Assembly (NCBI RefSeq): GCF_000026545.1
Contig: NC_011601.1
Direction: 5' to 3' (one strand)
DNA: 64,000 nucleotides
Source: Escherichia coli O127:H6 str. E2348/69
GTDB lineage: Bacteria > Pseudomonadota > Gammaproteobacteria > Enterobacterales > Enterobacteriaceae
The stretch's first letter is position 1. Every line of letters starts with the position of its first letter. Below the pieces are notes generated by a model that was given only the letters and a program-made list of their open reading frames with translations, was not told the DNA's origin and searched no databases. The position numbers and the translations under genes are program-made. Of this stretch, positions 9,254 to 16,188 are shown piece by piece.

Positions 9254-10108
9254 ATGGTACTGATGATCGTCAGCGGACGTTCAGGTTCAGGTAAATCTGT
9301 CGCCCTGCGTGCGCTGGAAGATATGGGTTTTTACTGCGTGGATAACCTTCCCGTAGTGTTGTTACCCGATCTGGCTCGAACTCTGGCCGATCGAGAGATT
9401 TCTGCCGCCGTCAGCATTGATGTTCGTAATATGCCGGAGTCACCAGAAATATTCGAACAGGCGATGAGTAACCTGCCTGACGCTTTCTCACCGCAACTCC
9501 TGTTCCTGGATGCCGACCGTAATACCTTAATTCGTCGTTACAGTGACACGCGCCGACTGCATCCGCTTTCCAGCAAAAACCTGTCGCTGGAAAGTGCTAT
9601 CGACAAAGAAAGCGATTTGCTGGAGCCTCTGCGTTCGCGAGCGGATCTGATTGTCGATACCTCAGAAATGTCCGTTCACGAGCTGGCAGAAATGCTGCGT
9701 ACCCGTCTGCTGGGTAAACGTGAACGTGAACTGACCATGGTCTTTGAGTCTTTCGGCTTCAAACACGGTATCCCTATCGATGCAGATTACGTCTTTGACG
9801 TGCGCTTCTTGCCGAACCCGCACTGGGATCCGAAACTGCGTCCAATGACAGGTCTTGATAAACCTGTCGCCGCGTTCCTCGACCGCCACACAGAAGTACA
9901 CAATTTTATCTACCAGACGCGAAGCTATCTTGAGCTATGGTTACCTATGCTGGAAACCAACAACCGTAGCTACCTGACGGTCGCCATTGGTTGTACCGGC
10001 GGGAAGCACCGTTCGGTGTATATTGCAGAGCAACTGGCAGACTACTTCCGCTCGCGCGGTAAAAACGTCCAGTCACGCCATCGGACGCTGGAAAAACGTA
10101 AACCATGA
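9254..10108 (+). CDS. rapZ: RapZ (YhbJ), RNase adaptor protein with P-loop
   Basis: 284 aa, Walker A GRSGSGKS at N-terminus; operon context. Confidence 0.95.
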
Positions 10109-10377
10109 CCGTCAAGCAAACTGTTGAAATCACAAACAAGCTGGGCATGCATGCCCGGCCTGCAATGAAGCTGTTTGAATTAATGCAGGGTTTTGACGCT
10201 GAAGTGCTGTTACGTAATGACGAAGGCACCGAGGCTGAAGCCAACAGCGTTATTGCGCTGCTGATGTTGGATTCTGCCAAAGGACGGCAGATTGAAGTTG
10301 AAGCGACCGGTCCACAGGAAGAGGAAGCACTGGCCGCCGTTATCGCCCTCTTTAACTCTGGTTTTGATGAAGATTAA
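10105..10377 (+). CDS. npr: NPr, HPr-like phosphocarrier protein of the nitrogen PTS
   Basis: 90 aa, HPr-like fold signature GMHARPA; start overlaps rapZ stop. Confidence 0.95.
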
Positions 10378-10522
10378 TCTTCATCACTTTGACATTCAAA
10401 TCCCTTCAAGCTCCCCCGGCAATAAGAAAAGCGCGTACTGAAATCGTTATCAATCAACGTCGATTGTACATTTCGTGCGCTTTTTACTTTCAGAAGAACC
10501 TTAAGAAAACCTTAAGAAGCAT

Positions 10523-10539
10523 TGTTTAGATTTCGTTTA
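10523..10539 (+). promoter_or_regulatory. PhoP box upstream of yrbL
   Basis: Direct repeat TGTTTA-GATTT-CGTTTA (hexamer-5 nt-hexamer) ending 11 bp before a CATACT -10-like hexamer, 51 bp upstream of the yrbL ATG. Confidence 0.7.
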
Positions 10540-10589
10540 AGTTAATCGACCATACTGGAGATCGTCAGAAAATATTTCCAGGAGATGGC

Positions 10590-11222
10590 ATGATTCGCTT
10601 ATCTGAACAAAGTCCCCTGGGCACCGGAAGACATCGGAAATGTTATGCGCATCCGGAAGATGCCCAACGCTGTATCAAGATTGTCTACCATCGTGGCGAT
10701 GGTGGCGATAAAGAGATCCGCCGTGAGTTAAAGTACTACGCGCATCTTGGTCGCCGGTTAAAAGACTGGAGTGGAATACCGCGCTATCACGGTACCGTTG
10801 AGACGGATTGCGGAACCGGTTATGTCTACGATGTGATTGCCGATTTCGACGGCAAGCCTTCCATTACGCTGACCGAATTTGCAGAACAATGCCGTTACGA
10901 AGAAGACATTGCACAACTGCGCCAGTTACTGAAACAGCTGAAGCGTTATTTGCAGGATAACCGTATCGTGACGATGTCGCTGAAGCCGCAGAATATCCTC
11001 TGTCACCGCATCAGTGAGTCAGAGGTTACCCCCGTCGTCTGCGACAACATTGGTGAAAGCACATTGATTCCACTGGCGACCTGGTCGAAGTGGGGTTGTC
11101 TGCGTAAGCAAGAGCGGTTATGGAAACGATTTATCGCCCAACCGGCGCTGGCTATTGCCCTGCAGAAAGATCTGCAACCTCGTGAGAGCAAAACGCTGGC
11201 CCTCACTTCGCGCGAAGCTTAA
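10590..11222 (+). CDS. yrbL: YrbL, PhoP-regulated protein of unknown function
   Basis: 210 aa ORF preceded by a PhoP box; stop overlaps convergent mtgA stop. Confidence 0.92.
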
Positions 11223-11947
11223 TCAAGCTGGTGTTGTTGCATAAACGGCTCACCGCCTAACTGATACATCTGCCGTAAAATCCACGCCTGACGGCTACGC
11301 ACGTAGCCCGATGGCGCGGAGACTTTGAAACGAAGTGGATTAGGTAATACAGCTGCCAGTAATGCAGCTTGCGACCGGGTAAGTTTGCTCGCGGGTTTGT
11401 GGAAATAACGTTGTGCCGCAGCTTCGACGCCAAACACACCGTCGCCAAATTCGGCGATATTCAGGTAAACCGTCAGGATACGCTTTTTGCTCCAGACTGT
11501 TTCTATCCCCAGCGTTAATCCGGCTTCCAGCCCTTTTCGAACCCAGCTACGCCCATCCCATAAAAAGAGATTTTTGGCTGTCTGCTGAGAAATCGTTGAA
11601 GCACCGCGAATACGGTTTTCATTGCGCTCGTTGTGCGCCAGGGCTTGCTCAATGGAAGCGACATCAAAGCCCCAGTGCTCAGGAAATTTCTGATCTTCTG
11701 CGGCAATCACCGCCAGTCCCATCCACGGCGAGATTTGATCCATACTGACCCAGTCGGAATGTGCCACGTAACGAAAATTGCCATGCAGCCAAGCGCTGAC
11801 TTGCCGCTCGACCATTACCGCTGAGAAAGGAACAGGCGCAACGCTAAACAACGCGATGCCCCCGCCCCAGAAAATGGCGAGGACAACCATTAACCGCAGA
11901 AGAAAACGGCGAACGAAACTAAACACCGTTAAGCGGCTTTTACTCAT
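11219..11947 (-). CDS. mtgA: MtgA, monofunctional peptidoglycan glycosyltransferase
   Basis: 242 aa, N-terminal TM plus GT51 motifs ([19 protein letters not shown]). Confidence 0.95.
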
Positions 11948-12597
11948 TCAGCCAGAACCAGCACGCGGGAAGCCAGCTTATCAATGCCGCTCGCCGCTTC
12001 TGCAATGTTCTGCGCCAGCATATATGCCGGGGTGGTGACAATCTTATTGTCTTCATCAACCACGATATCATCGACAGGACACGGCACATGCTCCGCGCCC
12101 ATCTCTTCCAGCACTTCTGCGGTATCGATATCAGTACCGATGGTCAAACGCAGCGGGAAATCGAAAATTTTCGGCAGTATCGCCGGTGCAATACACATAA
12201 AACCAAGCGGTTTTCCGGCCTGATGCATCGCTTGTGCCAGCGCCTTTAATTCACGGTCAACGGTGCATTCGCTACCAAGACTGGCAAAATTGCTTAAATT
12301 CTTCGCCGCGCCAAAACCCCCCGGCACAATCAACGCATCCAGTTCAGCGGCATCGGCCTGGGCCAGAGGACGAATTTCACCGCGCGTTATTCGTGCCGCT
12401 TCAATCAGCACATTGCGCGTTTCCGTCATCGCTTCACCCGTTAAATGGTTGATAACATCAACCTGCTGCTTATCCGGTGCAAAGCAGACCGCCTGCGCAC
12501 CGCTGCGTGAAATAGCTAACAACGTCAACACCGCTTCATGAATTTCAGAACCGTCATAGACGCCGCATCCGCTCAGAATTACGCCAATTTTCTTCAT
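11944..12597 (-). CDS. elbB: ElbB, DJ-1/PfpI-family glyoxalase-like protein
   Basis: 217 aa, DJ-1/PfpI-like; stop overlaps mtgA start. Confidence 0.93.
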
Positions 12598-12714
12598 TGT
12601 GATCTTCCTTTCGCAATTGACTGAAACACATTAATTTTTTTAATAAAAATGCTATGCATCACACATTTAACTGATTCATGTAACAAATCATTTAAGTTTT
12701 GCTATCTTAACTGC

Positions 12715-12835
12715 GTGCGGCCTGAAAAACAGTGCTGTGCCCTTGTAACTCATCATAATAATTTACGGCGCAGCCAAGATTTCCCTGGTGTTGGCGCAGT
12801 ATTCGCGCACCCCGGTCTAGCCGGGGTCATTTTTT
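12715..12835 (+). ncRNA. arcZ: ArcZ (SraH/RyhA) Hfq-dependent small RNA
   Basis: 121 nt stretch beginning GTGCGGCCTGAAAAACAGTGCTGTGCCC and ending in the GC hairpin CCCCGGTCTAGCCGGGG plus T-run, which I recognise as ArcZ; convergent with arcB and overlapping its stop codon. Confidence 0.85.
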
Positions 12836-15163
12836 AGTGGCTTTTGCCACCCACGCTTTCAGTACTTCTACGTCGTGACGCCACTCTTCTTTCATCTCTT
12901 CAATCCATTCACCGACGTTATCTTCCCAGGCGGGAAGGTCAGGAGACTGAATTTGCTGACCCAGCTGTTGCAGATGGCGTAACCCCACTGACCCCGCCGC
13001 ACCTTTAATTTTATGCCCTTCCTCAACAATGCCTTTTTTATCCTGCGCCGTCAGATTCGACTCCAGCACGCTGACATAGCCCGGCATCATCCTCTCAAAC
13101 ACCGCTAACCCGTCGGTGATCAGCTTCGGTCCTACAAGTTCGAGATACTGTTCCAGCATGGGAATATCGAGCAATGCTTCTGATTTACTATTCTCTTCTG
13201 TCGTCACCGTACTCTCCTCATCATCCTGGGTATCCCAGAATTTCTTGATCATCGCGGTTAGCGCCGGAACAGAAAGCGGCTTACTCAGCACATCATCCAT
13301 TCCAGCATTGAGGTACTCTTGTTTGTCTTTCAGCACGTTAGCGGTTAAGGCCACCAGCGGCGGTAAATCCTCGCGCGGATAACGCTTCGTCAGTTCACGA
13401 GAGATATCCAGCCCGGTCATATCTGGCAACTGAATATCCAGCAACACCAGGTCGTATTCGCCCGGTTTAAACATCTCCAGCGCCGCCTTGCCGGTCATGG
13501 CGACATCAACGCTGTTACCTAATTTTTCCAGCACAGAGCGCGCGACAATCACGTTCAGTTCAATGTCTTCCACCAGCAGCACATTCAGCGCCGGTAAAGG
13601 CATATCGTCTTCATCAAACGCATCATCAACCTCTTCTGCTACCGACGGTGCGTGGATCGTCAACGTAAAGGTTGAACCTTTGCCCTGTTCGCTGGTAACC
13701 GTAATATCGCCGCCCATATTTTTCGCCAGACGACGAGAAACGGCCAGACCAATACCGGTGCCGGTGGCAGGTTTACCGCCATGACTGTCTTTCACCTGGT
13801 AATACATGGCGAAGATTTTATCCAGCTCATCCTGCGGAATGCCGATACCAGAGTCTTCCACTTCAAAATGCAGCATATCGCCTTCATCGTAGCGCACGCG
13901 CACGGTAACCTGGCCTTGCTGAGTGAATTTGACGGCGTTACTGATGAGGTTCCACAAGATCTGCCGTAAACGCGTCCCGTCGGTAATGACCTGATGCGGT
14001 AATGGCAGCGTCGGCTCCAGATTAAAGCGCAATCCTTTTTGTTGCGCCTGCAATGCGGAGAGATTTTCCAGATCGGCAAGGAAGCTGGTGAAATCAACCG
14101 GCTGATTATCAAGCTGGACCTTGCGCCGTTCCATCTTATCCATGTCGATAATATCGTTGAAGATATTCCCCAGCGTGACAGCCGAAACATGGATGGTTTT
14201 GAGATATTTTTCCTGCTCGGCGGTGAGTTCAGTATCCAGCAGAATGCGGCTCAGGCCGACGATACCGTTCAGCGGTGTACGCAATTCGTGACTGATGGTG
14301 GAGATAAACGTCGTTTTGTCGCGGCTGGCGCGCTCAAGCGCATCCTGATACCGCTTACGCTCGGTAATGTCGCGACCAAAGCCCATCAAACCGTGACGTT
14401 TACCCACGCGGTCGTAGTACGGTACTTTACGGATTTCAAAGCAGGCTTTGCGTCCGTCGGGATAATCCAGCCACTGCTCATAGGTCAGTGACACATTATG
14501 ACGGAACACTTTTTCATCGGTTTCAATGACTTTCGCAGCGGCTTCCGGTGAGTAAACATCAGCAGGTTTCAGGTGAACCAGTTGTTTTTCGCTTTTTCCG
14601 GTCAGCAGCTCCATCGCGCGGTTACAGCCGGAAAACTCTTTATCTTCGTTACGATAAAAAACCAGGTCGGGTGAAGCGTCAAGGAAGGAACGTAAGAATG
14701 AGGATTGCTGCTCGAGCTGAATTTGTGTCTCTTCGCGCTCTTTGATTTCAATTTTCAGTTGGCCGAAGGTTTCCTGCAGTTCTGCTTCCGCTTTTTCACG
14801 AACGGCGATTTCCTGATTTAGCTGGGCAATATTATCTTTTAACTGAACGTTGAGGCTCAAATCGCGCTCGCGCATCTCCTCCAGTTTTTGCACCAGTCGT
14901 GACAGACGTTGTCGTGACTCCTCCAGTTGCTCGACGACCACCGATAGAAAGTAGACCGCCCACGGTGTAATCAGCAAACCAAAGAAGATAGAACGAATAA
15001 CATCAATGCTTTCGACCTGACCATGCAGCACCATGGTTACCGCCATTTGTACCACAATGGCAAGAACGACGAGGGCCAGCGCCAGCAACATTGAGAAGCG
15101 CACCAGACCTAACTTCATCATCAGGTCAACATAATACTGCGCCAGCAGACGAATTTGCTTCAT
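12827..15163 (-). CDS. arcB: ArcB, aerobic respiration control hybrid sensor kinase
   Basis: 778 aa; TM N-terminus, PAS, HisKA (HELRTPLNG), receiver and HPt domains. Confidence 0.97.
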   Translation of the reverse strand: MKQIRLLAQYYVDLMMKLGLVRFSMLLALALVVLAIVVQMAVTMVLHGQVESIDVIRSIFFGLLITPWAVYFLSVVVEQLEESRQRLSRLVQKLEEMRERDLSLNVQLKDNIAQLNQEIAVREKAEAELQETFGQLKIEIKEREETQIQLEQQSSFLRSFLDASPDLVFYRNEDKEFSGCNRAMELLTGKSEKQLVHLKPADVYSPEAAAKVIETDEKVFRHNVSLTYEQWLDYPDGRKACFEIRKVPYYDRVGKRHGLMGFGRDITERKRYQDALERASRDKTTFISTISHELRTPLNGIVGLSRILLDTELTAEQEKYLKTIHVSAVTLGNIFNDIIDMDKMERRKVQLDNQPVDFTSFLADLENLSALQAQQKGLRFNLEPTLPLPHQVITDGTRLRQILWNLISNAVKFTQQGQVTVRVRYDEGDMLHFEVEDSGIGIPQDELDKIFAMYYQVKDSHGGKPATGTGIGLAVSRRLAKNMGGDITVTSEQGKGSTFTLTIHAPSVAEEVDDAFDEDDMPLPALNVLLVEDIELNVIVARSVLEKLGNSVDVAMTGKAALEMFKPGEYDLVLLDIQLPDMTGLDISRELTKRYPREDLPPLVALTANVLKDKQEYLNAGMDDVLSKPLSVPALTAMIKKFWDTQDDEESTVTTEENSKSEALLDIPMLEQYLELVGPKLITDGLAVFERMMPGYVSVLESNLTAQDKKGIVEEGHKIKGAAGSVGLRHLQQLGQQIQSPDLPAWEDNVGEWIEEMKEEWRHDVEVLKAWVAKATKK

Positions 15164-15258
15164 TAGGGAATTCCTTCACGACAACCTGCCCCAATAATAC
15201 CCAATTCTGACAGTTACGTTATAAATTGTGTGAGAAATGCGGAATTCCCCTCAATGGA

Positions 15259-16188
15259 CTACGCCGTTGGAGGTAGCCACGGACGTCCCAGCGCCGATCC
15301 CTGTACGCCATGTTCATTCAGATAACGATCCAGCTCGACCATTCCCGTCCATCGATTTTCGCACCACAGCGGAGCAAGCAGCGTCGGGCGACGGGCGCTG
15401 GCGGAAATGCGATGGTAGATCACTTCCGGTGGCGTATGGCGAATCATTTCTCCGGCAGTGAGCGTGTAATCCTCCAGTTCAATCCCGTTCAAACGCCCCG
15501 CTTCCCAGGCTTTCGCCATAATGCTGCCTTTCACTATATGCAGCGGATGCAGCTTTATGCCGTCCACGCCGGTTTCAACCACTCGCTCCAGCGTTTGCAA
15601 ACATTCAGCCTGCCCTTCGCCAGGCAGGCCGACAATTAAGTGAGAACACACCTTCAGCCCACGCTCACGCGCCAGCTGCGTCGTGCGCTGATAGCAGGCA
15701 AAATCATGACCGCGATTGATGCGATGCAGTGTTTTGTCGTGGGCGGTTTGTAGCCCCAGCTCCAGCCACACTTCGTAGCCCTGGTCCTTATATTCGCAAA
15801 GCAGATCCAGCACCGCATCCGGCACGCAGTCCGGGCGGGTACCAACACACAAACCGACAATATTGGCCTGGCTCACCGCCTGCTGATACATCGAACGCAG
15901 CACCTGAACTTCCGCAAAGGTGCTGGTATACGCCTGAAAGTAGGCCAGATAGCGTTTAGCGCGGTTAACTAAATTCGCCTGGTGCGCCAGTTGCTCGGCA
16001 ATGGAACGATGCTGCTGCGCTTCATCCGCAAACGAGGCCACATTACAGAATGTGCAGCCGCCACGCCCGATGGTACCGTCACGGTTAGGGCAGCTAAAAC
16101 CGCCGTGCAGCGTCAGCTTATGCACCTTTTGCCCATAACGACGGGTGAGATCACCACCAAACATATTGACTAATTTCTGTAACTGCAT
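15259..16188 (-). CDS. yhcC: YhcC, radical SAM family protein
   Basis: ORF 15259..16221; start moved to ATG at 16186-16188 (MQLQKLVNMFGG), 309 aa; Cys motif CPNRDGTIGRGGCTFC. Confidence 0.9.
   Translation of the reverse strand: MQLQKLVNMFGGDLTRRYGQKVHKLTLHGGFSCPNRDGTIGRGGCTFCNVASFADEAQQHRSIAEQLAHQANLVNRAKRYLAYFQAYTSTFAEVQVLRSMYQQAVSQANIVGLCVGTRPDCVPDAVLDLLCEYKDQGYEVWLELGLQTAHDKTLHRINRGHDFACYQRTTQLARERGLKVCSHLIVGLPGEGQAECLQTLERVVETGVDGIKLHPLHIVKGSIMAKAWEAGRLNGIELEDYTLTAGEMIRHTPPEVIYHRISASARRPTLLAPLWCENRWTGMVELDRYLNEHGVQGSALGRPWLPPTA

Follow-up and report, generated by a model that had tools for sequence, protein, structure and literature searches.

Convergent gene pairs in which a small RNA (sRNA) and a protein gene have complementary 3′ ends are exemplified by GadY/gadX, where perfect pairing in cis is possible and each RNA can affect the other; arcZ and arcB form a pair of the same kind. 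The main documented activity of ArcZ nevertheless differs from that of GadY, as ArcZ acts by seed pairing in trans with many distant mRNAs, while its effect on arcB in cis is secondary and the mechanism of this effect is a matter of speculation. By function, the nearest described sRNAs are DsrA and RprA, which part of the source literature presents as Hfq-dependent activators of rpoS translation, like ArcZ. These two are unrelated to ArcZ in sequence and structure, respond to other signals, do not lie beside arcB and are not known to need RNase E processing for activity.

The 121-nt primary transcript of ArcZ binds Hfq via its 3′ region, and RNase E cuts it once to give a 56-nt 3′ fragment, which is the active form (2024 review). 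ArcZ is reported to control 10–15% of the genome in several species (2024 review). Its seed pairs with many mRNAs, of which rpoS is activated and tpx, sdaC, flhDC and mutS are repressed, and further seed partners include CyaR and hundreds from RIL-seq. At rpoS, ArcZ pairs with the 5′ leader and thereby frees the ribosome-binding site, and an anti-Rho action is included in the activation. With regard to its neighbor, ArcZ lowers arcB, and arcB transcription destabilizes ArcZ, for which antisense pairing has been speculated (2024 review; 2024 RpoS review). The usual arrangement is that arcZ is convergent with arcB and that the two overlap, usually by ten bases (2024 review).

Here, we examined the arcZ locus of Escherichia coli E2348/69 in a 64-kb stretch of its genome (the window; unless MG1655 is named, coordinates are positions in this stretch). 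A sequence-only reading of the window had noted an ArcZ terminator overlapping the end of arcB on the opposite strand and had called this the known ArcZ/arcB arrangement. This assessment was sound: the arrangement was described in 2001–2010 and is summarized in the 2024 review. It is already known, is widely conserved and needs no new explanation.

Results

Identity and ends of ArcZ

We scanned the window with the Rfam covariance models. RF00081 (ArcZ; gathering score 66) matched the + strand at 12715–12822 with 120.8 bits (E = 3.8e-28), and its alignment was complete, covering model positions 1–106 of 106 with no non-canonical pairs flagged. A scan of 10000–16000 at a permissive threshold gave one match, ArcZ, and a scan at the gathering threshold returned the same match again, as the sole Rfam family in the whole 64 kb. 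Since the RF00081 model stops at 12822, inside the terminator, the 12835 end of ArcZ needs support beyond Rfam. All 121 nt of 12715–12835 (+ strand, GUGCGGCCUGAAAAACAGUGCUGUGCC...CACCCCGGUCUAGCCGGGGUCAUUUUUU) are the same as in the curated arcZ gene of MG1655 (b4450, 3350577..3350697, +). Moreover, Term-seq of MG1655 (Adams et al. 2021) placed the dominant ArcZ 3′ end, classed there as "internal arcZ, antisense arcB", at 3350696 in three growth conditions. With the MG1655-to-window offset of 3337862, this is position 12834, one base before the annotated 12835; therefore, ArcZ mostly ends at U 5 of 6, and the overlap with arcB is 8–9 nt. The ArcZ ends given here for E2348/69 are those of K-12, carried over by sequence identity.

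The sequence-only reading had proposed a 121-nt ArcZ at 12715–12835 and had named an Rfam scan and a comparison with mapped ArcZ ends as the checks. Both came out in its favor: the scan gave a full-length match far above threshold that starts at 12715, and the K-12 annotation and the Term-seq end agree within 1 nt, with the T-run of the terminator extending to 12835 and the whole sequence identical to that of MG1655. We are left with hardly any doubt that 12715–12835 is arcZ, which encodes the Hfq-dependent sRNA formerly called SraH or RyhA, and that it lies where arcZ is normally found, convergent with arcB. The features of the locus are collected in Table 1.

In comparison with the ArcZ of K-12 (SraH/RyhA, RF00081, b4450), the E2348/69 gene has the same 121 nt, start, terminator, RNase E site, seed, position relative to arcB and 9-nt overlap. 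The loci differ by three substitutions in the elbB–arcZ spacer, upstream of the conserved promoter block; these, at 12605, 12652 and 12655 (T/A, C/G and T/C), are the only differences from MG1655 within 12598–12850. The 501-bp stretch 12500–13000 was present in 5416 of the 5426 complete E. coli genomes, with 10 giving no match and about 55 showing partial coverage. One match to this stretch was on a plasmid, and some genomes carried it in two places; such cases may represent disruptions or duplications of the junction.

Table 1 Features of the elbB–arcZ–arcB locus in the window
Feature	Position	Strand	Basis
elbB, divergent from arcZ; bounds the 229-bp gap	11944..12597	-	ORF list, RefSeq annotation
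Conserved block, candidate operator region; ends in a putative -35, GTAACA (12680-12685)	12658..12685	+	column conservation
Putative extended -10, TGcTATCTT; 17 bp after the -35, 6 nt before the start G12715	12700..12708	+	read by eye
Full-length ArcZ sRNA gene, 121 nt	12715..12835	+	RF00081, MG1655 identity, Term-seq end
5′ stem-loop, 8 bp, A/U-rich loop; GCUGUGCC (12734-12741) with GGCGCAGC (12767-12774)	12734..12774	+	Rfam consensus-structure line
Putative RNase E site, GA/UUU, cut between 12779 and 12780	12778..12782	+	matches consensus RN/WUU, directly before CCCUGGUGUUGGCGCA
Predicted processed active ArcZ, 56 nt (seed, small hairpin, terminator)	12780..12835	+	length and sequence as in the 2024 review
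Seed, CCCUGGUGUUGGCGCA; partly within the second small hairpin	12783..12798	+	
Second small hairpin, GCGC (12794-12797) with GCGC (12805-12808)	12794..12808	+	Rfam structure line
Rho-independent terminator; hairpin ACCCCGGU-CUA-GCCGGGGU (12809-12827), spacer CA, U-tract (12830-12835)	12809..12835	+	terminator scan, MFE fold, conservation
9-nt two-strand overlap; + strand U-CA-UUUUUU (ArcZ end), - strand AAA AAA TGA (Lys777, Lys778, stop)	12827..12835	both	
arcB, sensor histidine kinase, 778 aa, ending ATKK-stop	12827..15163	-	ORF list, same boundaries in RefSeq, Pfam

The elbB–arcB gap and the arcZ promoter

The gap between elbB and arcB spans 12598–12826, which agrees with the 229 bp given in the sequence-only reading, where ArcZ was taken to account for the otherwise empty gap. 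This account holds for the larger part only, as arcZ with its promoter occupies about 170 bp; the ~60 bp left over on the elbB side must accommodate the ribosome-binding site and the upstream leader region of elbB. The accompanying remark that arcZ is invisible to ORF-based annotation was borne out by the RefSeq/PGAP record of E. coli E2348/69 (NZ_CP059840.2), which is 100% identical in sequence and shows elbB and arcB here without an arcZ feature; the curated MG1655 record has arcZ.

We aligned 114 distinct Enterobacterales sequences of the region upstream of ArcZ. The candidate operator block showed 80–97% identity per column against much less conserved flanks, and, in the -10 region, TTTGCTA and the final T were 97–99% conserved. 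A sigma-70 consensus scan of 12400–13100 with a cut-off of 9/12 passed no site; the elements that we read by eye amount to 8/12 of the consensus, plus the TGn extension. Their conservation supports the notion that 12680–12708 would act as the arcZ promoter.

Repression of arcZ by ArcA is reportedly described by Mandin and Gottesman in 2010, in what is said to be the primary paper on ArcZ/arcB regulation. The 2024 review states that ArcA-P represses arcZ directly when oxygen is low, and a genome-wide ArcA ChIP study did not find a site upstream of arcZ. When we searched the window for the classic ArcA box, GTTAATTAAATGTTA, with at most 3 mismatches, we obtained 3 matches, none of them near arcZ, a count no better than chance; a looser scan with an ArcA 16-mer gave only matches with 6 mismatches. 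The GTTA half-sites in the arcZ promoter region have spacings of 13 and 27 bp instead of 11 bp.

The ORF list also contains an ATG-initiated ORF of 62 codons at 12649..12837 (+), spanning both the arcZ promoter and ArcZ, from which a small protein could in principle be made. However, the first codon of this ORF precedes the transcription start (12715), it covers an ArcZ 5′ half that is poorly conserved and that in relatives contains indels of lengths not divisible by three, and its locus matches a structured-RNA model with the E value given above. We rejected it as a coding sequence on account of its start and of these indels, and we consider the probability of a small protein here negligible.

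Parts and structure of ArcZ

The 5′ half of ArcZ (columns 12715–12779) was poorly conserved in the Enterobacterales alignment and contained indels, and the two strands of the 5′ stem differ in sequence among species (GCUGUGCC/GGCGCAGC, CAACCUGC/GCAGGUUG, GCUGUUGC/GCAACAGC). The stem itself is nevertheless kept, as structure. In the Rfam alignment, 8/8 of its pairs are canonical, and, when 107 distinct homologues were folded singly, the 46-nt segments equivalent to 12730–12775 had a mean z of -2.68 against shuffled sequences, with 92% below -1. When 35 sequences were aligned by MAFFT and analyzed with RNAalifold, the stems obtained were limited to the invariant ones of the 3′ half, without compensatory changes, and the divergent 5′ hairpin was left unaligned. 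Thus, the ArcZ 5′ hairpin is kept in structure, not in sequence. This is what would be expected of a region hypothesized to hold the seed unavailable until cleavage; according to the hypothesis in the 2024 review, pairing of the 3′ seed is prevented for as long as the 5′ region has not been removed by cleavage.

For the cleavage itself, the 2024 review, citing Chao et al. (2017), gives the RNase E site of ArcZ as RN/WUU (the slash marks the cut) followed by the 16-mer CCCUGGUGUUGGCGCA, the order that is also read at 12778–12798. Once exposed in the 56-nt fragment, the seed CCCUGGUGUUGGCGCA would pair with target mRNAs.

The 3′ half showed the opposite pattern of conservation to the 5′ half. 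Its stems are invariant or changed only from G-C to G-U, and GGGG-TCA-T6 at the ArcZ 3′ end is near-100% conserved. In the terminator scan, the stem at 12809–12827 had 8 bp, 6 of them G-C, and was followed by CATTTTTT; the same hairpin was present in the MFE fold. The segment 12809–12835 on the + strand was the only intrinsic-terminator-like site found on either strand within 12400–13100.

The overlap between ArcZ and arcB

The + strand reads "tca" at 12827–12829, and therefore the arcB stop codon is TGA, at the position where the sequence-only reading had put it and where the ORF list and RefSeq agree in putting it. The same reading had described the ArcZ terminator as complementary to the very end of the arcB ORF. 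This is correct for one part of the terminator, namely the U-tract (opposite Lys-Lys) and the UCA spacer (opposite the stop codon), which includes the last stem base, 12827. It does not apply to the remainder of the hairpin, 12809–12826, which lies opposite the arcB 3′ UTR. The annotated ends give an overlap of 9 nt (12827–12835), which the Term-seq end shortens to 8 nt, and the same 9 nt overlap in MG1655 (3350689–3350697; arcB 3350689..3353025, -).

The Pfam architecture of ArcB comprises TM, PAS, HisKA, HATPase_c, receiver and Hpt. Since the Hpt match extends no further than residue 760 in a protein of 778, the two lysines encoded opposite the ArcZ U-tract lie outside the last Pfam domain match.

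Conservation of the junction

We surveyed species-representative Enterobacterales genomes that contain an exact copy of a 36-nt ArcZ core (12780–12815), of which there were at least 120, from genera including Escherichia, Salmonella, Citrobacter, Enterobacter, Kosakonia, Cedecea, Yersinia, Rahnella, Rouxiella, Erwinia, Pantoea and Mixta. In each genome, we determined where the T-run lies and where the long convergent ORF stops. Because the survey selects on the exact 36-nt core, lineages with a diverged seed are excluded from it; species with ArcZ seed changes are Dickeya, Pectobacterium, Erwinia amylovora and Edwardsiella (2024 review).

Among the matches listed, the junction in 95 of the 120 genomes was like that of the window (stem, TCA or TTA, T6–8), with a spread from Escherichia to Yersinia, Rahnella and Erwinia, and ArcB ended in KK directly before the stop in 95/95 of them. 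The stop codon in these 95 listed genomes was TGA in 77 and TAA in 18. Within the same listed set, the overlap was 9 nt with T6 (as in all five Escherichia), 10 nt with T7 and 11 nt with T8. The "usually ten bases" of the 2024 review is thus the middle of a 9–11-nt range, which is set by the length of the T-run.

The other genomes among the matches listed fell into four classes. The arcB stop was inside the T-run in 10/120, leaving an overlap of 1–2 nt; there was no overlap in 9/120 (Pantoea, Mixta and Chimaeribacter), where a gap of 4–58 nt separated the two; arcB ran into the hairpin in 2/120, for an overlap of 22–23 nt; and 4/120 were not assessable (3 without a detected long convergent ORF and 1 with too short a flank). 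In the 21 listed genomes whose arcB stop is elsewhere, the ArcZ terminator was still GGGG-TCA/TTA-T5-9.

Individual loci illustrate the variation. Those with little or no overlap (Pantoea, Mixta, Pluralibacter and Chimaeribacter; loci L022, L031, L033, L050, L055, L073, L102 and L111, among others) have retained GGGGTCAT(5-9). In Enterobacter sichuanensis (L091) and Pantoea sp. 1.19 (L016), the TCA is not in the arcB reading frame, which extends beyond it into the ArcZ hairpin. The T-run of L091 is 8 nt, and its ArcB ends in KKMTPA before the stop; for L016, the ORF call is based on a flank of only 88 codons.

On the protein side, the residues before the KK of ArcB, which are beyond the Hpt match, vary freely (WVAKATKK, WVESRKK, WAAEAEKK). 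The simplest reading of the survey is that the ArcZ 3′ end is the constrained partner and that the ArcB tail adapts to the ArcZ terminator. It could be argued instead that the 9–11-nt overlap of ORF and terminator is itself a selected regulatory device, with ribosomes ending on arcB, or polymerase collisions, modulating ArcZ. Such a device would be in keeping with an exact junction kept in 95 of the 120 genomes among the matches listed, with the mutual regulation of ArcZ and arcB described in the reviews and with the + strand coverage antisense in arcB, which goes from 20 to 418 when Rho is inhibited (see below). However, in Pantoea, Mixta, Pluralibacter and Chimaeribacter, the arcB stop has moved by up to 58 nt while the ArcZ terminator is intact, and Pectobacterium has no overlap (2024 review). 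Because the stop has moved in several lineages and the overlap is absent from Pectobacterium, the overlap is dispensable, and the conservation of the junction is more simply explained by constraint on the ArcZ 3′ end combined with a free ArcB tail. We therefore assign the regulatory device a low probability; the ORF overlap is best explained by an sRNA terminator that determines the sequence of a structurally free ArcB tail, rather than by a regulatory function of the overlap as such.

The arcB transcript end and antisense transcription

Terminators that work in both directions are known to occur between convergent genes of E. coli. The hairpin at 12809–12827 might accordingly be an economical intrinsic terminator for both ArcZ and arcB, in which case the arcB mRNA would not be antisense through arcZ. 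Its stem is a near-perfect palindrome that forms equally well on the - strand, an A-tract lies on the arcB side of the hairpin, and arcZ and arcB are convergent and tightly packed. On the - strand, however, the hairpin is followed by GCGCGAAUAC, so that the U-tract expected of a bidirectional terminator on this side is missing. In agreement with this, the terminator scan of 12400–13100 found no - strand terminator-like site, and the Term-seq tables, which represent one dataset, contain no 3′ end for arcB or elbB and no - strand end in MG1655 3350000–3350699, an interval that holds the ArcZ end alone. The published arcB-dependent destabilization of ArcZ also argues that the two transcripts overlap. 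Taken together, these results make a terminator shared by both genes very improbable.

Since the - strand hairpin is not followed by a U-tract, arcB appears to be without a terminator signal of its own, and its mRNA would therefore run antisense through arcZ. Most likely, then, the arcB mRNA continues antisense across arcZ, and the complementarity of the two RNAs extends far beyond 9 nt. The overlap between the arcB and arcZ transcripts is likely to be the physical basis of their mutual repression. Transcripts of arcB may also run through arcZ into elbB.

There is antisense transcription on the other strand as well. In their Rho table, Adams et al. (2021) report a region of Rho termination on the + strand that is antisense to arcB and has its peak at 3351461 (window 13599). 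In their DirectRNA-seq, the coverage of the 800 nt upstream and downstream of this position was 2219 and 20, respectively, without bicyclomycin, and 3049 and 418 in the presence of the drug (Rho score 15.2, p = 1e-68). The position of the peak probably reflects the 800-nt scoring window. We found no + strand promoter-like site by consensus between the ArcZ end and the Rho peak (~12836–13599; MG1655 3350698–3351461), and ArcZ read-through is thus weakly favored as the source of the antisense coverage. This suggests that transcription of ArcZ sometimes passes the terminator and that Rho normally ends it.

Discussion

The preferred reading of this locus is that the ArcZ terminator is constrained and the end of ArcB is free to follow it. 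One could go further and propose that ArcZ and arcB repress each other through the physical coupling of their genes and not through seed pairing in trans. The coupling would have three elements. Lacking a terminator, arcB would run antisense through arcZ; ArcZ read-through would run antisense into arcB, where it would normally be stopped by Rho; and the U-tract of ArcZ would encode the terminal Lys-Lys-stop of ArcB. We consider it unlikely that coupling replaces trans pairing in this way. If it did, the near-universal junction would be kept as the setter of the balance between head-on transcription and antisense RNA.

To what was known of arcZ and arcB, our analysis adds a count of how far the exact junction has spread (95/120 genomes among the matches listed). 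It also places the constraint on the sRNA terminator and not on the protein; the terminator fixes the "KK" of ArcB and, via the length of the T-run, the size of the overlap. Furthermore, an arcB gene that lacks both a terminator signal and a mapped 3′ end would give the antisense mechanism speculated on in the reviews a concrete and testable basis. The locus is at the same time an example of a conserved global regulator that sits in a gap left blank by protein-centered annotation, as automated annotation omits arcZ.
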